64,000 bases of DNA from Candidatus Woesearchaeota archaeon (GTDB taxonomy: Archaea > Nanobdellota > Nanobdellia > Pacearchaeales > GW2011-AR1): assembly GCA_964409005.1 (NCBI GenBank), contig CAYPBR010000001.1, positions 18,383-82,382 on the forward strand, in the 5' to 3' direction. The translations under genes and the position numbers were made by a program. Shown piece after piece: positions 4,163-37,075 of this stretch (the first letter of the stretch is position 1; every line of letters starts with the position of its first letter). The notes below the pieces were generated by a model. That model was given only the letters and a program-made list of their open reading frames with translations, was not told the origin of the DNA and did not search any database.

Positions 4163-6040
4163 TTAACTTACCTCTTCATAAGTTCCTGGCTTTGCAAGTT
4201 CAACATCTATCCAATATACAGGTAAAAACTGTTTTGGATTTTTAGATACCCACTCAATATTTCTTAATCCGCCTACACCTTTCGGAGCATAAACTGTATC
4301 ATAGTCCTGAAGAAATTCATTACCACTTTGTCTACTTATATCATAATCTTGAAATAAAGTTTTCTTTTGCCCTAATGCGTTTTTACATACAAATAATACT
4401 CCCCTCGTTCCTATTTGTCTACTAAAGCCTTTACCTACATATTGTAACGACTTTGAACTATTCGATGATCCATAAATTCCGTCACCTATCATTCTACCTA
4501 CTTCAGGTTTTGTTACTTTAAATCCGCCCCTTGCAATCTTAGCAGCGTTCTTAAACGCCGTTCCGTGATATGAGAATGTTACATTCCCTATATCTTTTTC
4601 AACTTTTTTATAATCTTTATAATAACTTGTATCATCAATTTTAAAAATGTTATGTATTTTAAATCCAAAGCTTCCATGTTCATCTTTATCAAAGGTCGAC
4701 TTCATTTTATCGTATACTTTCTTTTGCTCTTTTGACGATGCATTACTTAATGAAAATGTTTTACGCTCTTCACCTTGCTCTGATAATGCCGATAACAGTT
4801 TCTTTTTTGCCGATTCTCCTTTATATGCCTGACTTCTTTTTTCTATAAATAACTTTCTTAATTCTTCAGCATCGTCTACTCCATAAGCTTCTTTTGCATT
4901 TATCAATTTAGAATTTTTTCTCATTTTAGGAAGTAGTATCTTATTTGTATAATATGCTGTATATAGCGCTTCAAACCATTTCTTTGATTTAGGATTATCT
5001 TTTTGAGTGCTCGTAATATCTCTTTTCAATTTCTTTACTACATCTAATTTTATATTTCCAATATCACTCATTATATTTTTATTCCTTTTCATAAAATCTT
5101 TACTTTTTTTCATCGGTTCTGTCTGCACATTAAAAGCATCAATCAATTGTTTTTTTTCTACAGCCGTTATACCTTTAGCTTCTTTAATTATTTTAATATT
5201 ATCTGTATTATCATCACTCCAATAATCAAGCATATAACCTTCATCGGATATAAGCGCTGAATATCTTTTTAATACAATTGGAATCGAGTCTACTATTTCA
5301 GCTCTATCCACTTGAGGCATCATACTTACTTTAGCACTATCAAAATCTTTATAATTATCAACAGTATATCCTCTTTGTTTAGCAACCTTCTTTAAAGTCT
5401 TATTATAATATTTATCATATATTTCTTTTCTTACATTATGTATTGCATTACGTGATCTACTTACTACATTATCTAATTTCTTACTTTCTTTTCTTAACGC
5501 TCGTACATTTTCATCCTTTGCATACTGTTTCAATAATATTTTTCTATATGGTTCTATTACATCTTTCATTTCCTTCGGCATTCCTGTAAACATTTTAACG
5601 CCGTACTTCTTTTCCATTTCTATTATCTCACCTAACTTTAATCCAATTTTATTTGTTGTATACTTACTTGATGATCCCATGCTAGGATGATAAATCCACT
5701 TTATATATCCCGGCAACTTACTATAATCAATTTTAATCGTCGACGCTTTAAATATACTTGCCATTTCATCGCTTACATATTTCAGCGACCTCGTATCTTT
5801 ACATAATATTCCAGTACTATCTAATATTTGCTTCTGCTCTTTATTTATTTTCGGTACTCCCACAACTTTTTCTTTAACAGTCTTTTTTCTTTCTACTGCT
5901 GCAGCCACTCCCACATACTTCATCACTCCAGCAACTTTCTTATACTTCAGTAACCTTCCCTTTATATTATATGTTACTACTTGACCCTCAGCAATTCTTC
6001 TTCTTTTTTGTGCCTTAACAAATAACATATCCTTCCTCAA
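4163..6040 (-). CDS. lysine-rich protein with a C-terminal PARP-like ADP-ribosyltransferase catalytic domain
   Basis: C-terminus matches the PARP/tankyrase catalytic core. 'YHGTAFKNAAKIARGGF' ~ 'FHGSPFVNAIIHKGF' and 'GDGIYGSSNSSKSLQY' ~ 'GAGIYFAENSSKSNQY'. 'LFVCKNALGQ' ~ 'LLLCRVTLGK' and 'NIEWVSK' ~ 'AEYVIYR' (catalytic Glu). The H-Y-E triad is present. Confidence 0.7.
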   Translation of the reverse strand: MRKDMLFVKAQKRRRIAEGQVVTYNIKGRLLKYKKVAGVMKYVGVAAAVERKKTVKEKVVGVPKINKEQKQILDSTGILCKDTRSLKYVSDEMASIFKASTIKIDYSKLPGYIKWIYHPSMGSSSKYTTNKIGLKLGEIIEMEKKYGVKMFTGMPKEMKDVIEPYRKILLKQYAKDENVRALRKESKKLDNVVSRSRNAIHNVRKEIYDKYYNKTLKKVAKQRGYTVDNYKDFDSAKVSMMPQVDRAEIVDSIPIVLKRYSALISDEGYMLDYWSDDNTDNIKIIKEAKGITAVEKKQLIDAFNVQTEPMKKSKDFMKRNKNIMSDIGNIKLDVVKKLKRDITSTQKDNPKSKKWFEALYTAYYTNKILLPKMRKNSKLINAKEAYGVDDAEELRKLFIEKRSQAYKGESAKKKLLSALSEQGEERKTFSLSNASSKEQKKVYDKMKSTFDKDEHGSFGFKIHNIFKIDDTSYYKDYKKVEKDIGNVTFSYHGTAFKNAAKIARGGFKVTKPEVGRMIGDGIYGSSNSSKSLQYVGKGFSRQIGTRGVLFVCKNALGQKKTLFQDYDISRQSGNEFLQDYDTVYAPKGVGGLRNIEWVSKNPKQFLPVYWIDVELAKPGTYEEVS

Positions 6041-13792: not shown

Positions 13793-14149
13793 TCAAATTT
13801 CATTATCTGACACTCCTAACCCAAATTCCTTATTTATTTCTTCTTCTTCCGATACACCTATAGTATCATTATTAACTTGATCAATAGCGTGTACTTTACA
13901 TCCTTTATACTTGCCTGCATTTCTAACTTTTTCAATAGCTTCTTGCATAGTTGAAGCTTCAACATCCAATATTTTCTGAATTGTTATTCTATACTTCATT
14001 TTTCTCTCCTTATTATTTATTTCTTTTAATTCTCGCATTGATTTAACTATATAACCTTTACCGTGAACTATTGTCATTGCCGAACACACATCTTCTGCCT
14101 CAATAACAATCTCATCATCTTTAATTACATCAATTAAATAGCATTTCAT
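13793..14149 (-). CDS. hypothetical protein (118 aa)
   Basis: Minus-strand ORF. Confidence 0.45.
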   Translation of the reverse strand: MKCYLIDVIKDDEIVIEAEDVCSAMTIVHGKGYIVKSMRELKEINNKERKMKYRITIQKILDVEASTMQEAIEKVRNAGKYKGCKVHAIDQVNNDTIGVSEEEEINKEFGLGVSDNEI

Positions 14150-14513
14150 TTTTATTCTCCTTACGATTTATAGAATCTTTCATACTAAAACCATTAGGGT
14201 ATCTTTCTTTAAGCTTTTCTATATTATGTTTCATTATGTCATCAAGACTAAATCCCATAATACTCGCCAACGCTGTAAGATACCATAACGCATCACCTAT
14301 CTCTTCCTTAACATTATTTCTATCCAACTTCCAATCATGATAAAGTACATGCTTAAGATGTCCTGCTAACTCACCCACTTCACTTATTATCCCTAAACAA
14401 TAATTCTTAACTTCTTCATTTTTAGTAATAAGATAATTTCGTGTTCGTTCAACAAGTTCCTGATATTCATTATTCTTCACTATTACGCTCCTTATAACTC
14501 TCAAGTGCATCAA
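14130..14513 (-). CDS. mazG: MazG-like nucleoside triphosphate pyrophosphohydrolase
   Basis: 'GIISEVGELAGHL' and 'KEEIGDALWYL' are the EExx(E/D) metal-binding helices of the MazG/HisE all-alpha NTP-PPase fold. Confidence 0.7.
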   Translation of the reverse strand: MMHLRVIRSVIVKNNEYQELVERTRNYLITKNEEVKNYCLGIISEVGELAGHLKHVLYHDWKLDRNNVKEEIGDALWYLTALASIMGFSLDDIMKHNIEKLKERYPNGFSMKDSINRKENKNEMLFN

Positions 14514-14721
14514 GTTTTTTAATCATCCAATCTTTTACATTGCCGGTCAATTGAATATAATCATAAACCCCTTCAATGCTTTCAAGAGCAAATTCATAAT
14601 AAGGATCATCCATCATATTGTTAATTCGCTCATTCAAATCATCGTCAACTTTATGTTCTTTACACTCTATTTTAAAATCACTTAATTTTGCCATTATTTC
14701 TATCCTTATGAGTTTCATCAT
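14470..14721 (-). CDS. hypothetical protein (83 aa)
   Basis: Overlaps both neighbours by about 44 nt, so its true boundaries are uncertain. Confidence 0.35.
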   Translation of the reverse strand: MMKLIRIEIMAKLSDFKIECKEHKVDDDLNERINNMMDDPYYEFALESIEGVYDYIQLTGNVKDWMIKKLDALESYKERNSEE

Positions 14722-15574
14722 ATTGTTTAACTTTTTTTATTACCTTTTCTGTTGCTTCGTTATAAATATCTTTCACATCTTTAAAATTCCAGACTCGTTC
14801 TTCTATACCTTTAAGACTATATACCTTATTTATTAATCGTTTTTGAAAATCTTTAAAATCTTTATGATAAATATGAAAACTATCTGCCTGCCAATTTAAA
14901 CGCCCCATTACAAGATTGTTATCAATACGAGACTGAACTCTCGGTATTACTACTTCCTTATTAAACATAATAAATCCAAACATATTCATAAAGCTTGCGC
15001 CCCAAGCATCATTACTTCTTATTCTTATATTGCAATTAAGAATATATTCAGTCTTTCCTTTTCTTAAATTAAATTCCTCTGATATTCTATACCAAATACT
15101 TTGTATGCAAGGTGGATCATCTATAAATAAATCAATTTCAGGCTCCCATGTAATCATCTGCGACTGCCTATTAAATGGTTGAACAACTAATTTATCTATA
15201 ACAACATTCAATTGATTTAAAAACCTACCCATCTTCGTAGGATAATTTGTAAGCCTATCATGATAAGTATACGGCCATCTTGTATCATCAGGATCGTCAA
15301 TGTCAGCTTGCCAATGATCTTTAATACCCTCCTCTAATTCCATTACATATTCCCTCAAATCCTCAATCCCACCGCGAAATGCTTTATGTATCATTGGTTC
15401 TGCAAGTGGGTCTTCAATTACAATATTCATAGTGCAATCCAATGTTTTATCTTCTTCTTTCATATCGTACTGTGATTTAATATGTTTTCCCGATGTATAA
15501 AGTTTTATCAAAGCTTTTTCATAAGCCAATGCTAAAGTCTCACCCCTCACTATTATCACTGGTATCCCTTTCAT
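14678..15574 (-). CDS. thymidylate-synthase-family enzyme (ThyA / dCMP- or dUMP-hydroxymethylase homolog)
   Basis: 'PPCIQSIWYRI' corresponds to the catalytic-Cys region (ThyA 'PCH..YQF'; T4 gp42 'FMCTNTVQYLI'). 'RIRSNDAWGASFMNMFGF' matches 'RSNDVVFGFRND' (T4 gp42) and 'RSADVFLGVPFN' (ThyA). Confidence 0.7.
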   Translation of the reverse strand: MKGIPVIIVRGETLALAYEKALIKLYTSGKHIKSQYDMKEEDKTLDCTMNIVIEDPLAEPMIHKAFRGGIEDLREYVMELEEGIKDHWQADIDDPDDTRWPYTYHDRLTNYPTKMGRFLNQLNVVIDKLVVQPFNRQSQMITWEPEIDLFIDDPPCIQSIWYRISEEFNLRKGKTEYILNCNIRIRSNDAWGASFMNMFGFIMFNKEVVIPRVQSRIDNNLVMGRLNWQADSFHIYHKDFKDFQKRLINKVYSLKGIEERVWNFKDVKDIYNEATEKVIKKVKQYDETHKDRNNGKIK

Positions 15575-15825
15575 CGCACTCCTCCTAAATATTTTTCATC
15601 TAATAGTTCGCTTTCTATTAAAATAGTTAATAATCTTTCTTCATCTTCAAAGGGATTATTAATTAATAATCCCTTTGAAAAATATTCTTTTACTTTTTTT
15701 TTAAATAAATCTTTTTGCTTATGAGTAAAATCTTTTTGACAGAGATTACGATTATTTGTTTTCTTTCTCAAGTACATTATTAAATTATATGATATTAATT
15801 CAAGTGGCCTTTCTGCTCTATTCAT
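15571..15825 (-). CDS. hypothetical protein (84 aa)
   Basis: Minus-strand ORF with an ATGA stop/start overlap with the downstream gene. Confidence 0.4.
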   Translation of the reverse strand: MNRAERPLELISYNLIMYLRKKTNNRNLCQKDFTHKQKDLFKKKVKEYFSKGLLINNPFEDEERLLTILIESELLDEKYLGGVR

Positions 15826-30845: not shown

Positions 30846-33800
30846 TTACAAATTAATATTATTTAGCAAATCTCTCAATTTTCTAAATGGCTTTTTTACC
30901 TTTTCAAAGCCAATTCCAACAAGAATTTTGCCATTACTTAATTTCCCCTGTGCAACATAATAATCATCATTACTAGCTTCATCCAAAACTTTAGCACACA
31001 TCTTATATATATTATGAAATACAACTATTTCAGTTTGATTATTTTCCCAGTCTTTTCCAACAAGAAATATCATTTTCTTATTATTCTTATCAACTATATT
31101 TTTTTTACTTAATATTTTAAAACAATAATATTGATCTCCACTATCTAAATGCTGATTTAATAAAGCTGTTTTTTTATTTTTAATTATATAACTAAGTTTT
31201 TTTATCGTTTCGACAGATTCACTACAAAAAATATTAAACTTACAAACTTCTTTCTCCAATTTCCTTTTCTCTTCCATTGTAAAATCACCTCTATCTTTAT
31301 ATTTATTCCAATGTTTCCATAATTCCTTTCTTACAACCTTCTCATCTTTATTCTTATACTTAGTTTTAACTACCGACCAATTAACCCAAAAATCATGTAG
31401 TGCTTTTCTATTGCCGTTTAAATTATCAAAGGCACCTATATCTATAAGATTTAAAATAGCAGTCTTATTGGATTTCATTTTCAATTCTTTTATACAAAAA
31501 TCAGAAAAAGAAATAAACGGTTTTGCCTTAGATATTTCAAACGGTAACGCACTTCCAACTCCATGTACAATTGACAAAGGTACTCTTATATTTTCACCTT
31601 CCATATAAAATTTATCAGTAGATTTACCTATATCAATTTTATTAAAAACATTAGCATTAGTTTTACGTTTCATAAAATTCATATAAACTTCCAGCTCATT
31701 TCTCTTTTTAAAATCTTGAACTGATTCTTTATTTTCAACAGTATTAAGTAAAGCAGTAAAATAATATTTTGTATAATATTCTCTCATGTATAGTGTCTGC
31801 ATTGCTATGATAGAATACGATACAGAATGACTCCTATTAAAACTATACTCAGCAAAATAAGCTAATTTATCAATCAACTTATCAATTGCTTTATCTTCCA
31901 TTTGAGCATTTTCTCTTGCTCCCTTTCTAAGTTTAGTCATTGTAACAACTAATCTTTTATCCAATTTTTTATTTTCAGTACTTGTTTCCATTAAATATAA
32001 ATCTTTAAAAATCTTTCTTGATTTATCGGCTTCTTCAAGCGTGAAACCACCAAGTTTATGAAGTATCTCTATAAATTGTTCTTGATACGCAATAGTTCCA
32101 TAAGTACTATTAAGAATCTCACCGAAAATTGGCACTTTATAATGTTCGCTAAATTTCTTTCCTAACTGTTTAAGTTTTCTTCTTCTATGTACATATTTCA
32201 TATGCTCATTTGCCTTTACCACTGCAGGTCTATATAGTGCATTTATAACCGCCACATCTTCAAAATTTTCAGGCTGTACTTCTTTTAAAAAACTATTTAT
32301 TCCATAAGCCTCAAATTGAAAAATACCAATACAATCTTCATTGCATAGTACTTCATATAAATGTTTATCATATATATAAGCCGATACATCATTAAGATCA
32401 ATTTGTATACCAAGATCATCTTCAACCATCTGTACAGCATTTTTCAATATACTTACATTTTCAAGTCCTAATATATCAATCTTCAATACTCCAAGTTGTG
32501 TTAATTCTCTAAAATCTTTTCCCTCTTTAAATGCTGTTACTATATCTCCTTTAATTTTAGACACTGGTATATAATCATAAATAGGACTTGGAGTAATAAC
32601 TGTACCTCCAGCATGTCTACTAAATTGTCTTATTCTACCTATTAATCTATCTGCCATTAAAAACATTTCTTTATTCTTTTTAAAATAAGTCTTTTCTTTA
32701 TTTGTCCATTCTTTGTCTTTTATTTGATCTTTAAGATAATAAATAGCACCAACATTATCATTATCTATCTTTTTAATTATAGTTCTAAACTCATCATCTT
32801 TATCTTTTTCTTTTACACGGGCCATATCCCACAATGCACCCTTTGTCCTAAATGTACTAAATGTAATTATATGTGCAACTCGATCTTCGCCATATTTCTG
32901 TTTTAAGTACTCTTCAATTTCAGATTTACGACTACTTTCAAAATCTAAGTCAATATCAGGAGCATCATTTCTATCCTTATTTAAAAATCTTTCAAACAAT
33001 AAATTAAATTTTATAGGATCAACTTTTGTTATTTCCAATAAATAAGAAATAAGCGAGCCAGCCGCACTCCCTCTTCCCGGCCCAACTGCTATATCTTTCT
33101 TATTACAAAAATTAATAATATCATGTACAATCAAAAAATAATCAGCATAATTTTTATCTATAATTACCTTTAATTCTTTTTTAGTTCTTTCAATATAATT
33201 TTCAGGTATTTTCAATCCGTTAAATATTCTTTTTAATCCTTTTTTACACTCTACTTTAAGCATAACATTTGAATTTACTTCATATCCATCTTTATCAATA
33301 AAAGCAGGAAACTTATTTTCTTCATCAGATAAACTAAAATTACATTTGTCAGCAACATCTTTAGTAGTTTTAATTGCATTATCCATTACATGCTTTGCAA
33401 ATCCATATCTTAACTTTTTGTTTACCTCATAATAATATTCAGGTGTATGAAAATATAATTGTCTAGCATCAAATCTAAAAATGCTTTTATCACTTTCTTT
33501 TTTTCTTTGATTAATCATTAATAAATAATCTTGTAATTCAACATCATTCTTTTTTATATAATGACAATCACCAGTAGCTACATAGTCAATTCCATGCTGT
33601 TGACATAAATATTGAATACCTCTTGTTACATCTACTTGATCTTTTATTTCATTAAAATGTAATTCTCCATAAAAATCATCTTTAAATACTTTTTTCCATC
33701 TTAAAAATATTTTTTCTGCTTTTTGCATATTTCCATTTATTAAAGGTTCTGCAATTATACCTCCCATACACGCTGTAAGGCATATTAACCCTTTTGAATG

Positions 33801-34175
33801 TTTTAATACAAAATCTGTTGTAGTTCTTCCCTTATAGTAAAATCCATTCTTAAATGAATCATAATTTATTTTAAGTAAATTTTTATACCCTGTTTTATTC
33901 TTTGCTAAAAGGACTACATGCTTATTAGTTCTTTTTTCCTTCCCTTTTCCATTATCTCTATTGTCATTCAAATAAAATTCACATCCAATAATAGGTTTAA
34001 TTCCATTCTTCTTACAGCTATTTGAAAATCTCAATACACCTGACATGCTACCATGATCTGCTATTGCAATTGCTTTCATCCCGACTTCTTTAGCTTTTTC
34101 CACGTATTCTTCAGGACTCGGAATTCCGTCAAGCAACGAATAATAAGTATGAATATGTAATTGACAAAAATTCAT
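30846..34175 (-). CDS. dnaE: DNA polymerase III alpha subunit (DnaE-type, with N-terminal PHP domain)
   Basis: 'QLHIHTYYSLLDGIPSPEEYVEKAKEVGMKAIAIADHGSMSGV' is the PHP domain. 'GPGRGSAAGSLISYLLEITKVDP' is the Pol III alpha palm. Length 1109 aa. Confidence 0.9.
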   Translation of the reverse strand: MNFCQLHIHTYYSLLDGIPSPEEYVEKAKEVGMKAIAIADHGSMSGVLRFSNSCKKNGIKPIIGCEFYLNDNRDNGKGKEKRTNKHVVLLAKNKTGYKNLLKINYDSFKNGFYYKGRTTTDFVLKHSKGLICLTACMGGIIAEPLINGNMQKAEKIFLRWKKVFKDDFYGELHFNEIKDQVDVTRGIQYLCQQHGIDYVATGDCHYIKKNDVELQDYLLMINQRKKESDKSIFRFDARQLYFHTPEYYYEVNKKLRYGFAKHVMDNAIKTTKDVADKCNFSLSDEENKFPAFIDKDGYEVNSNVMLKVECKKGLKRIFNGLKIPENYIERTKKELKVIIDKNYADYFLIVHDIINFCNKKDIAVGPGRGSAAGSLISYLLEITKVDPIKFNLLFERFLNKDRNDAPDIDLDFESSRKSEIEEYLKQKYGEDRVAHIITFSTFRTKGALWDMARVKEKDKDDEFRTIIKKIDNDNVGAIYYLKDQIKDKEWTNKEKTYFKKNKEMFLMADRLIGRIRQFSRHAGGTVITPSPIYDYIPVSKIKGDIVTAFKEGKDFRELTQLGVLKIDILGLENVSILKNAVQMVEDDLGIQIDLNDVSAYIYDKHLYEVLCNEDCIGIFQFEAYGINSFLKEVQPENFEDVAVINALYRPAVVKANEHMKYVHRRRKLKQLGKKFSEHYKVPIFGEILNSTYGTIAYQEQFIEILHKLGGFTLEEADKSRKIFKDLYLMETSTENKKLDKRLVVTMTKLRKGARENAQMEDKAIDKLIDKLAYFAEYSFNRSHSVSYSIIAMQTLYMREYYTKYYFTALLNTVENKESVQDFKKRNELEVYMNFMKRKTNANVFNKIDIGKSTDKFYMEGENIRVPLSIVHGVGSALPFEISKAKPFISFSDFCIKELKMKSNKTAILNLIDIGAFDNLNGNRKALHDFWVNWSVVKTKYKNKDEKVVRKELWKHWNKYKDRGDFTMEEKRKLEKEVCKFNIFCSESVETIKKLSYIIKNKKTALLNQHLDSGDQYYCFKILSKKNIVDKNNKKMIFLVGKDWENNQTEIVVFHNIYKMCAKVLDEASNDDYYVAQGKLSNGKILVGIGFEKVKKPFRKLRDLLNNINL

Positions 34176-34475: not shown

Positions 34476-35102
34476 TTAAGGTCTTTTTCTTCTATAAAAA
34501 TATTCAGATGGAAGCCAGTAATGAGCCTTCAATCCCTTAACATTCCAAATCAATATCTCCGAATGAAATTCAACATTTACAAATACATCCAAAGGCATAC
34601 TAATTATTGATGTTATTTCAGCTTTACAATCGTCTCTAAAATATTCTGATCGTTTACTAAATACCCTTTGATTTAAGCGAAAACCCATAGGAGCAAATAA
34701 CACTACTGAAACTTTCTCTCCAAACAATTCAAATATCTTTTTAAGAAAAACTTCAGGCATTAATTGCCGACCTTTAATATTATTAAAAGGTGGATTGCAC
34801 ATTACTAATGATGGTTTTTCAACATGGTCATAATCCGGTAAACCAAGAAAATCTTCATGAAGAAATGTATTCAAATTATTTTTTATTTTCTTATCATCAA
34901 TTCCTATAGTATAACAATTCTTAAATGCTTCTGCCAATCTTCCATCGCCGCATCCCACATCAACTATTCTTGGACGTTTACCACTAATATTGTTATACAA
35001 TAATTCAGCTAAAAAGTCACATATTCCGTAAGGAGTTTTAATATCGCATTTCTTCTTGTTTTCATGATAGTTATTTCTCGTTACTGTAAGTGGTGATGCC
35101 AT
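34476..35102 (-). CDS. SAM-dependent methyltransferase with an NPPF motif (gamma-class amino-MTase; DNA N6-adenine MTase candidate)
   Basis: Motif I 'IVDVGCGDGRLAEAF'; motif IV 'LVMCNPPFNN'. Confidence 0.55.
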   Translation of the reverse strand: MASPLTVTRNNYHENKKKCDIKTPYGICDFLAELLYNNISGKRPRIVDVGCGDGRLAEAFKNCYTIGIDDKKIKNNLNTFLHEDFLGLPDYDHVEKPSLVMCNPPFNNIKGRQLMPEVFLKKIFELFGEKVSVVLFAPMGFRLNQRVFSKRSEYFRDDCKAEITSIISMPLDVFVNVEFHSEILIWNVKGLKAHYWLPSEYFYRRKRP

Positions 35103-35103
35103 T

Positions 35104-35358
35104 TTATTTTACCTCACTTTTTTCAAATAATATATAGCCTATATCTTTCAACCATTCTTTTCTGTACTTATAACCATCAGCGTCAATATAATCATAAAAT
35201 TTTTTATCGTTACCAGTTGTAAATTTTACATCTATTGTTTTGCCCATTTTTCTCTGCATACTAATAACAAATCCATAATCCCCTCTTTCATCATGGCCTA
35301 TAAATGATAATTTTAAATAATCCGGCATTTTTTTAAAACATTTTACTGTAGCTTTCAT
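35104..35358 (-). CDS. hypothetical protein (84 aa)
   Basis: Minus-strand ORF. Confidence 0.45.
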   Translation of the reverse strand: MKATVKCFKKMPDYLKLSFIGHDERGDYGFVISMQRKMGKTIDVKFTTGNDKKFYDYIDADGYKYRKEWLKDIGYILFEKSEVK

Positions 35359-35370
35359 TTTTTTATTCCT

Positions 35371-36522
35371 TTATTTTTTTATCTCCTTCCAAGTATCATT
35401 TAATCTTCCCTTTATAATATTAATACTACTTTTATCCTTCTCAATCAATATGCACTTTCTATTGTTTTTCATACAAGCAACTCCAACAGTTCCAGCACCA
35501 GCAAATGGTTCTAATATAGTTTGTTTAGGTATAGTAAACTTTTCCAACAGTATTTCAAATCCTGCTACTGCCTGTTGCCAAGGATGAAGTTCTTTTTCTT
35601 CCTTTAAATCACTTTCAAAAAAATCAACAGTCATAAATCTTTGTTTTTTTATTGGCAATTTTTGAAATATTATAATAGACCTATAAAGTTGATATATATT
35701 TCTCGGAAAAACCCTAGCGTGTTTACCACGTAATTTCATACACATCTGCCAATAATACTCAAGATGTTCTTCCATCCTATTTAACACTTCAGGTAAATAA
35801 TAAACTCCTGTATATGTAATACAAAACCCACTCGGTTTAAGCACTCTATTAGCTACTTCACCTAACTGACTCCATAATGGTAAAAATTTCTTTGGATAAG
35901 GAGGATCAGTTATTATATGATCTATAGAATTAGGCTTTATATTTTCCATACAATAAGAATAAAAGTCACCGTGTATTACAGAAAACAATTCTTCTCCTTT
36001 ATACAAACTACCTTTCCTTTTCATTGCTTTCCTATCTTTTTCAGTCTTTTTCTCTCTTACTTTTTTAATAACTTTTTCTCTTGTAGGTAAATTTCCTTTT
36101 TTTGTTTCCTCATTGATTACTTCCTCTATAGCATCTTCATTATCAGCTAAAGTTTGAGCACGCATTATATCTGTTCTGTTAATACCAGTTTTTTGTAATG
36201 GAGTTAAGATCGTTACACCGGTGGAACGATCTGACTTCTTTTTTCTATATTTACCACTAATCGTTCCTCCGGACGTTCTAGGAACTTCCTTTAATAAATT
36301 TCCCATCTTCGCTTCTGCATACAATACTACTCCACCCATGAATTGAGTCTCTTCTAATTTTTGATCATAGACGCTCTTTGAAAGTCCTAATCTTTTAATT
36401 GCGTCTATTTGAACTTTATGAGATTCAATTCGTCTTTTCGTTATAATTATAAATTGTTTTAACTCATCAATCGTCGCCGGCAAATTCTCTTTTCTCAATA
36501 CTAACGCTTTTGATTTATCCAT
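35371..36522 (-). CDS. beta-class DNA amino-methyltransferase with an N-terminal extension
   Basis: 'DHIITDPPYPKKF' is motif IV; 'ILEPFAGAGTVGVAC' is motif I. Confidence 0.8.
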   Translation of the reverse strand: MDKSKALVLRKENLPATIDELKQFIIITKRRIESHKVQIDAIKRLGLSKSVYDQKLEETQFMGGVVLYAEAKMGNLLKEVPRTSGGTISGKYRKKKSDRSTGVTILTPLQKTGINRTDIMRAQTLADNEDAIEEVINEETKKGNLPTREKVIKKVREKKTEKDRKAMKRKGSLYKGEELFSVIHGDFYSYCMENIKPNSIDHIITDPPYPKKFLPLWSQLGEVANRVLKPSGFCITYTGVYYLPEVLNRMEEHLEYYWQMCMKLRGKHARVFPRNIYQLYRSIIIFQKLPIKKQRFMTVDFFESDLKEEKELHPWQQAVAGFEILLEKFTIPKQTILEPFAGAGTVGVACMKNNRKCILIEKDKSSINIIKGRLNDTWKEIKK

Positions 36523-37075
36523 TTGATTTCCTTTTAACTAATTTTATATCACTCTTTACTTCGTTTCCCCACACATCCCAACCTTTAATTTTCTCTCTTG
36601 CAAATAATTCTATTCTTAATAAATCACCAAACAGTTTTACAATTTTATCTCTAATAATATCTGGTTTGCGACTATGTTCACGAACAGGTGATACTATAAC
36701 TGAACGCACACTATGGGACAATCTTTTTAATGGTTTGCCCTTTGTTGCTAATAAACATATTTCAGCATTACTACGAGTATAATAACCCATTCCTAAAAAA
36801 ACACCCTTACCTGATTTATTCTTTTTAATCCAAGTAAATGCATTTGTTTTATATTCAAATCCCCAACTTTCTATTATTGGAATAGCCCAACTTAATTTAG
36901 GAAATGTAACCCACATAAGCAATACTGAATTCTCATCAGATATATTATTAACAGGTAATTTTTTTAATTCGTCTAATGTCATCGTACTATACTTGTTAAC
37001 AACATATCTACTACTTGATTGACCAAATTTATAATGCCATGGTGGATCAGCATATATTATTTTATATTTCTTCAC
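36515..37075 (-). CDS. MT-A70 / Dam-like N6-adenine DNA methyltransferase
   Basis: 'IIYADPPWHY' is the DPPW catalytic motif of the MT-A70 family. Confidence 0.8.
   Translation of the reverse strand: MKKYKIIYADPPWHYKFGQSSSRYVVNKYSTMTLDELKKLPVNNISDENSVLLMWVTFPKLSWAIPIIESWGFEYKTNAFTWIKKNKSGKGVFLGMGYYTRSNAEICLLATKGKPLKRLSHSVRSVIVSPVREHSRKPDIIRDKIVKLFGDLLRIELFAREKIKGWDVWGNEVKSDIKLVKRKSNG

Follow-up and report, generated by a model that had tools for sequence, protein, structure and literature searches.

A predicted dUMP-specific enzyme of the archaeal-type thymidylate synthase branch encoded by a tailed phage

We analyzed a 64,000-nucleotide stretch (the window) of contig CAYPBR010000001.1, in which a tailed phage has its genes for replication, lysis, packaging, and the baseplate. 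Our subject is a thyA-like open reading frame (ORF) at 14678-15574 on the minus strand, which encodes a 298-amino-acid (298-aa) protein of the ThyA superfamily. We favor, with limited confidence, the reading that this protein is a folate-dependent C5 one-carbon transferase specific for deoxyuridine monophosphate (dUMP), that it belongs to the archaeal-type branch of thymidylate synthases (TS), and that it most likely works as a TS. This reading is supported because methanogen-type TS is its closest curated relative and the catalytic and ligand-binding residues of ThyA are all kept; because members of the clade stand alone on the chromosomes of at least 574 bacterial species; because the recurrent neighbors of its cellular members are enzymes of deoxypyrimidine and folate metabolism; and because the window, with a G+C content of ~30%, lacks modification-pathway genes and any other ThyA, ThyX, or dihydrofolate reductase (DHFR). 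Gene content was surveyed in the window and in 4.6 kb beyond its edge, within a 96-kb contig of which ~27 kb lies outside this survey.

In the mechanism we propose, Cys156 would add to C6 of dUMP and Asp189 would help to open 5,10-methylene-tetrahydrofolate. The methylene group would then be passed to C5, where a hydride supplied by the folate would reduce it, yielding deoxythymidine monophosphate (dTMP) and dihydrofolate. As an auxiliary metabolic gene, probably taken from bacteria, it would supply the phage with more deoxythymidine triphosphate (dTTP) for a genome of 70% A+T. The co-transcribed MazG would then act as a general pyrophosphohydrolase of deoxynucleoside and nucleoside triphosphates (dNTPs and NTPs), rather than as a dedicated partner.

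Family assignment and distribution

A first-pass annotation, made from the sequence alone, had placed the protein in the ThyA/dCMP-hydroxymethylase superfamily (dCMP, deoxycytidine monophosphate), and this placement held. PF00303 (Thymidylat_synt) matches residues 98-258 (E=2e-9; 37.4 bits against a gathering score of 24.3) and is present in 120 of the 120 listed homologues; the protein has the ThyA fold and keeps the catalytic residues. Judged by these features, it is a true enzyme of the superfamily, though not a canonical ThyA. Against the NCBIfam equivalogs for canonical ThyA (TIGR03284 and NF002495/7), it scores 16.3-28.5 bits, below their cut-offs of 108-327.

Among the NCBIfam models, TIGR03283 (methanogen-type TS) fits best, matching the protein with 86 bits (E=2e-24) and a cellular homologue (P0072) with 100.5 bits (E=9e-29); its equivalog cut-off, 174.55, is reached by neither. 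Even so, the alignment is colinear and full length (residues 8-242 against positions 2-200 of the 201 in the model) and takes in an N-terminal domain that is absent from canonical ThyA. The N-terminal half, described in the first-pass annotation as divergent, does diverge from canonical ThyA (the N-terminal 100 residues cannot be aligned) and instead follows TIGR03283 throughout. In pairwise BLASTP comparisons, the TS of Methanobrevibacter oralis (P0144) scored highest (50 bits, E=6e-12, at an identity of only ~24%), followed by gp29, the dUMP hydroxymethylase of phage SPO1 (35 bits, E=1e-6), and canonical ThyA (25 bits).

Archaeal-type TS is thus the closest curated relative. It shares with our protein the motifs D-x-P-C, (F)RSND, and (S/M)N-M, as well as the non-canonical N-terminal domain. 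The two differ in length: archaeal-type TS has ~230 aa, and our protein has internal insertions and, at its C-terminus, a helical extension of 55 aa. They also differ in setting, as the hosts of our clade are bacteria and phages that use folate and not methanopterin.

Other searches reached less far. A search of PDB sequences returned only weak ThyA matches for the whole protein and none for its N-terminal 111 aa, and global hhalign alignments to the single E. coli ThyA and T4 gp42 sequences were too weak to use outside the core. The top structural neighbor in Foldseek was AfhB of phage HY126 (PDB 9IQU/9IQC), a flavin-dependent dCMP hydroxylase with a ThyA fold and 14% identity. BFVD held no close viral structure (≤19% identity).

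The clade itself is large. We found more than 2,700 relatives of ~295 aa and ~53% identity, many of them on long cellular contigs. A scan of one genome per GTDB species placed the clade in at least 574 bacterial species. Its hosts include Verrucomicrobiota, Kiritimatiellia (among them the isolate Pontiella sulfatireligans F21), Bacteroidales, and Prolixibacteraceae, together with Ignavibacteria, Spirochaetia, Lentisphaerae, and Armatimonadetes, and the gene stands alone on chromosomal contigs of up to 2.8 Mb. When 1.84 billion representatives were searched exhaustively with HMMER, 119 clusters at 50% identity matched at E≤1e-30, and relaxing the limit to E≤1e-3 raised the number to no more than 774. 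This points to a diverse clade that lies well apart from the many canonical ThyA clusters. Clade members were also carried by eight IMG/VR viral contigs, and the count of viral contigs at E≤1e-30 is nine.

In a distance tree, cellular and viral members together were monophyletic, with canonical ThyA outside, in 197 of 200 bootstraps, and our protein paired with one relative (P0002) in all 200. The phylogenetic test proposed in the first-pass annotation therefore puts the protein outside ordinary ThyA. Viral members were interspersed among cellular ones and were monophyletic in 0 of 200 bootstraps, which points to repeated transfers, as expected of metabolic genes that are captured again and again. 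Distances to the outgroups increased from archaeal TS (2.27) through SPO1 gp29 (2.60) and canonical ThyA (2.89) to T4 gp42 (2.93), although such deep distances are saturated and the grouping of the clade with archaeal TS has a bootstrap of 64%. The order of the outgroups is the same in tree distances and BLASTP bits. For this clade, the literature searched, including searches on archaeal-type TS, held no characterization or biochemical data.

Some clade genes contain inteins. In two IMG/VR genes (L091:8001-10124, 707 aa, and L092:7458-9611, 717 aa), a LAGLIDADG-type intein sits directly before the catalytic Cys, which is the +1 extein residue ('...YDPA / CFARGSLV...VHN / CLQSLW...', with slashes at the junctions). 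At least eight representatives of 649-736 aa have split matches, suggesting that inteins recur in the clade.

Active-site residues and predicted substrate

We aligned the protein with E. coli ThyA and T4 gp42 (reference sequences identical to their PDB entries), with SPO1 gp29, a Methanobacteriales virus TS, and a cellular Methanobrevibacter TS, and with 15 archaeal sequences. In E. coli numbering, Asn at position N177 goes with dUMP and Asp with dCMP as substrate (PMC8670742, PMC13326640). Position D169 is Asp in folate enzymes, and D169N is a mark of the flavin-dependent 5-hydroxy-dCMP synthases (PMC13326640). The residue at L143 correlates with the product, which is methyl where that residue is hydrophobic and hydroxymethyl where it is acidic (PMC8670742, PMC13326640).

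The residues of our protein that correspond to those of E. coli ThyA are C156 (C146), R136 (R126), R186 (R166), S187 (S167), D189 (D169), N197 (N177), H234 (H207), and Y236 (Y209). All of these catalytic and ligand positions, among them the Arg, Ser, His, and Tyr that bind phosphate and sugar, are invariant in the clade and the same as in ThyA, as is the position of E. coli Y94. Both hallmarks recognized in the first-pass annotation were real: 'PPCIQSIWYRI' holds the catalytic Cys, with C156 aligned to C146, and RIRSNDAWGASFMN is the R166-S167-x-D169...N177 motif. The further suggestion that its RSND lies closer to T4 gp42 than to ThyA did not survive the comparison, as RSND is also present in the ThyA of B. 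subtilis (1BKO) and in every archaeal TS. The spacing of 11 residues from Arg186 to Asn197 equals that from R166 to N177 in E. coli and from R168 to D179 in gp42, and at this discriminating residue the protein has Asn, as in ThyA, not Asp, as in gp42.

From these residues, the substrate pocket is predicted to be of the uracil type, accepting dUMP. Cytosine chemistry, in the form of a dCMP hydroxymethylase, a dCMP methylase, or a flavin-dependent dCMP 5-hydroxylase, was suggested by the structural match to AfhB; we consider it extremely improbable. T4 gp42, AfhB, and gp48 of phage RB69 resemble our protein in their compact ThyA fold and in an Asp at the L143 position. However, identity is 14-16%, and the position equivalent to N177 (D179 in gp42) is Asp in gp42 and in the flavin-dependent hydroxylases, the latter also carrying D169N. 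Our protein has Asn197, which is clade-invariant, with Asn near-universal at this position across 150 representatives, and it keeps Asp189. Because of Asn197, 5-hydroxymethylcytosine, 5-methylcytosine, and 5-hydroxycytosine are excluded as products by the rule cited above for N177, and the 5-hydroxymethylcytosine DNA proposed in the first-pass annotation finds no support. The folate-activating Asp189 likewise excludes AfhB-like flavin chemistry, so that a flavin hydroxylase, which the AfhB match had made us consider, was rejected on both residues. No glycosyltransferases were found in the surveyed DNA.

The protein departs from canonical ThyA (E. coli, B. subtilis, and T4 td) at several positions, where it has Asp for Leu143, Gln for Arg127, and Ile for both His147 and Gln165. 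The first two replacements, Asp153 and Gln137 in our protein, are invariant in the clade. Asp is also found at the L143 position in every cellular archaeal TS examined (EDIPC), and its universal presence in cellular Methanobrevibacter TS makes it a trait of the clade rather than a marker of hydroxymethylases. As this Asp is common to SPO1 gp29, T4 gp42, and archaeal TS, the signature cannot separate a TS from a dUMP hydroxymethylase. A comparison of the residues thought to distinguish methylation from hydroxymethylation, which the first-pass annotation had recommended, was therefore informative in part: Asn197 excludes dCMP, Asp189 excludes flavin chemistry, and Asp153 does not discriminate.

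The broader family contains a sub-branch (P0266, P0284, P0300, P0303, P0322, P0343, and P0351) that reads RSRN...N and so combines D169N with the uracil-type Asn177. Its members are candidate dUMP 5-hydroxylases.

The operon, the phage, and the neighbors of related genes

The thyA-like gene lies in the following transcription unit:

15571-15825, minus strand: upstream ORF of 84 aa, in the same transcription unit as the thyA-like gene
14678-15574, minus strand: thyA-like ORF of 298 aa; ThyA superfamily, in the archaeal-type (methanogen-TS-like) clade of bacteria and phages
14470-14694, minus strand: small ORF between the thyA-like gene and mazG, 74 aa as called or 83 aa if translation starts at the first ATG (14721)
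14130-14480, minus strand: mazG, 116 aa from a GTG at 14480 or 127 aa from a TTG at 14513

The ATG of the thyA-like gene overlaps the stop codon of the 84-aa ORF (ATGA), and a strong Shine-Dalgarno sequence, AGGAGG, lies 5-6 nucleotides (nt) upstream, inside the 3′ end of that ORF. The small ORF overlaps both of its neighbors. Since successive genes overlap by 11-17 nt, the thyA-like gene, the small ORF, and mazG form one translationally coupled unit. The small ORF matched no family in profile searches, and the one other place where it is kept is L106, which is a variant of this phage and nearly identical to it. A 96-kb contig and a Logan contig of 20 kb encode the identical 298-aa protein. 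The phage is tied to sample SRR8799001, from marine or lake sediment.

MazG matches PF03819 (E=3e-13; 50.1 bits against a cut-off of 22) and phrog_229 (E=4e-35), and its metal-binding motif EXXE...EEXXD is intact ('SEVGELAG...KEEIGDALWY'; EVGE...EEIGD). It is predicted to be an all-alpha NTP pyrophosphohydrolase. Profiles and overlapping genes thus bear out the adjacency to mazG noted in the first-pass annotation and place both genes in one tightly packed operon. The annotation's view of MazG as a partner fared less well, as the adjacency recurs only in L106; near the clade gene, no MazG homologue was found in eight other viral loci, nor in the cellular and metagenomic loci, 158 in number.

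Cellular clade genes mostly stand alone among unrelated housekeeping genes, with nucleotide or folate neighbors in ~15-20% of loci. These neighbors include a YfbR-like HD 5′-deoxynucleotidase, a YjjG-like HAD hydrolase (upstream), formate-tetrahydrofolate ligase, and the nucleoside-deoxyribosyltransferase family PF05014. A fusion of CoaB/DFP (phosphopantothenate-cysteine ligase) to an HD_3/YfbR-like domain lies directly downstream of the clade gene in six loci (L035, L038, L045, L060, L069, and L082), and the HD domain occurs alone (~215 aa) in four other cellular loci. In E. coli, YfbR and YjjG belong to the ordinary metabolism of dUMP and thymidylate, so such neighbors also fit a plain TS.

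The same neighbors could point to another reaction at C5 of a uracil nucleotide, using a different one-carbon carrier or serving salvage or cleansing alongside phosphatases and N-glycosidase-family proteins, with the phage copy acting on the nucleotide pool. The recurrence of YfbR-like, YjjG-like, and PF05014 proteins would be in keeping with this, as would the lack of linkage to DHFR in the 158 loci, the diversification of the signature in the broader family (including the D169N sub-branch), and the lack of biochemical data for the clade in the literature searched. However, in most loci the neighbors are housekeeping genes without a related function, every ThyA residue that contacts dUMP or folate is conserved, and the YfbR and YjjG neighbors are not specific to such a role. 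We therefore judge it distinctly improbable.

Two viral contigs of a jumbo-phage lineage (L087 and L091) carry the clade gene within 3 kb of a canonical thyA (KLPPCH, with Leu at −3). In L087 (6007-9908 of the 332-kb IMGVR_UViG_3300037851_000141), the clade gene lies between thyA and folA, which are directly adjacent in ten viral relatives. Here they are split by a 2.5-kb insertion that holds the clade gene and three unassigned ORFs, and an HNH-like ORF follows folA. In L091, the clade gene is accompanied by transposase-like ORFs as well as the intein described above. The two contigs are sister lineages, and their double-ThyA state is one mobile-element-mediated event.

Outside the operon, the window encodes TerL (gpA type), a PARP-domain protein, an SLT transglycosylase, and a peptidoglycan-binding endolysin; a replication and recombination set of FEN, a helicase, SbcCD, RecA, DnaG, DnaB, a DnaC-like loader, and a DNA polymerase; and the tail proteins Baseplate_J and the tail-tube and sheath initiators. 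The 4.6 kb beyond the window edge reaches the head module. No deoxynucleoside monophosphate (dNMP) kinase, dCMP deaminase, dUTPase, or DNA kinase was found in the surveyed DNA. Enzymes for the further hypermodified base envisaged in the first-pass annotation were not found in the window or the flanking head module either. Other features of the window are:

1 to ~140, minus strand: 131-aa HAD-motif protein (full gene at L185:10269-10664), between a methyltransferase and the portal gene
380-1192: N6_N4_Mtase methyltransferase, overlapping the 3′ end of TerL
4163-6040, minus strand: 625-aa PARP protein (PF00644, E=1e-16, residues 436-568) with a large N-terminal region without annotation
30846-34175, minus strand: full-length DnaE-type DNA polymerase III alpha with PHP, NTPase, finger, and HHH domains
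34476-35102, minus strand: weak, sub-threshold MTS-like methyltransferase
35371-36522, minus strand: N6_N4_Mtase methyltransferase, solid match
36515-37075, minus strand: MT-A70 methyltransferase, solid match

Among the four DNA methyltransferases counted in the first-pass annotation, three are solid and the fourth is weak and sub-threshold. As amino (N6/N4) types, they are unrelated to pyrimidine C5 chemistry and lend no weight to a modified pyrimidine. The partial HAD-like nucleotidase is a real ORF with a DxDGV motif ('ALDFDGVIH'); the full protein, however, matches HAD and PNKP phosphatases only below threshold. Its gene is part of the packaging module, 14 kb from the thyA-like locus, to which it is unrelated.

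Three methyltransferase-like genes stand in a row on the minus strand (34476-37075), just downstream of the polymerase III alpha gene. The minus strand carries almost all genes of the window, and GC skew stays below zero in all 2-kb bins between 1 and 64000, with no strand switch or origin-like inflection in the window.

The likely product and its significance

If the enzyme were a dUMP hydroxymethylase, water rather than hydride would attack the exocyclic methylene to give 5-hydroxymethyl-dUMP (hmdUMP), MazG would deplete dTTP or deoxyuridine triphosphate (dUTP), and phage DNA would contain 5-hydroxymethyluracil, partly or fully. We regard this as unlikely, but several observations that weigh against a TS would fit it. 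The signature of Asp at −3, Asp169, and Asn177, with TRQ in place of SRR at R126/R127, is the same as in the proven hydroxymethylase SPO1 gp29, another phage-encoded protein with the ThyA fold, and enzymes with hydroxymethyl products tend to be acidic at L143 (PMC13326640). The canonical C-terminal lid is missing: the tail that shields the methylene intermediate in canonical ThyA is replaced by the helical extension. In L087 and L091, moreover, the clade gene coexists with canonical thyA and folA, as gene 42 does with td and frd in T4, an arrangement that argues against simple redundancy. The shared operon with MazG and the cellular neighbors, which include nucleotide phosphatases and the MilB/DNPH1-type family PF05014, would also suit a hydroxymethylase.

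Two further points tell against a TS. To our knowledge, the archaeal-type TS reaction has never been fully reconstituted, as the description of TIGR03283 also states. The same point is made in the literature (PMC9931769). No DHFR was found near the clade gene in the 158 cellular and metagenomic loci, although this negative carries no information, since a thyA can function without a folA beside it.

Several observations weigh against a hydroxymethylase. The combination of an acidic residue at L143 with Asn177, present here as Asp153 and Asn197, is not exclusive to SPO1-type enzymes, as cellular Methanobrevibacter TS has an identical signature. The relation to gp29 is weak: the N-termini differ, gp29 has a 130-aa C-terminal domain that our protein lacks, and the gp29 family phrog_5131 matches our protein with E=5e-10 (40 bits) compared to 2.5e-136 for gp29 itself, which leaves it outside the family. 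The nearest relatives are chromosomal genes in bacteria, where hmdUMP synthesis has no known role. Phages with hydroxymethyluracil carry the companion functions dTMPase, dCMP deaminase, dNMP kinase, and 5-HMUDK (PMC8989533), none of which was found in the scanned DNA. Taking the SPO1-type companions as dTTPase/dUTPase, dTMPase, dCMP deaminase, and dNMP kinase, the surveyed DNA offers only MazG and the weak 131-aa HAD-motif protein as candidates; no clear SPO1 pathway partner was found there. Finally, adjacency to mazG is not conserved, and the double-ThyA state arose in a single insertion event.

These considerations extend from the phage to the clade. It is doubtful, though conceivable, that the whole clade consists not of TS but of folate-dependent dUMP hydroxymethylases or other non-reductive C5 transferases, with hydroxymethyluracil in the phage DNA and MazG clearing dTTP or dUTP. 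This view would draw on three features: an Asp where E. coli ThyA has L143, the lack of a C-terminal lid, and the coexistence with thyA and folA in jumbo phages. If it were true, bacteria would carry a previously unrecognized enzyme that forms hmdUMP. If the enzyme is a plain TS, as we favor, the phage gene would be an ordinary auxiliary gene of nucleotide metabolism, albeit from an uncharacterized clade.

In either case, the published L143 rule does not apply across the superfamily, because cellular archaeal TS carry the acidic residue, a caveat for pipelines that use ThyA signatures to predict modified DNA in phages. This large and highly conserved clade has been exchanged repeatedly between bacteria and phages, and it includes members with inteins at the catalytic Cys. 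Depending on the product, hundreds of bacteria and a set of phages would make dTMP with an archaeal-type enzyme or would instead make hmdUMP.

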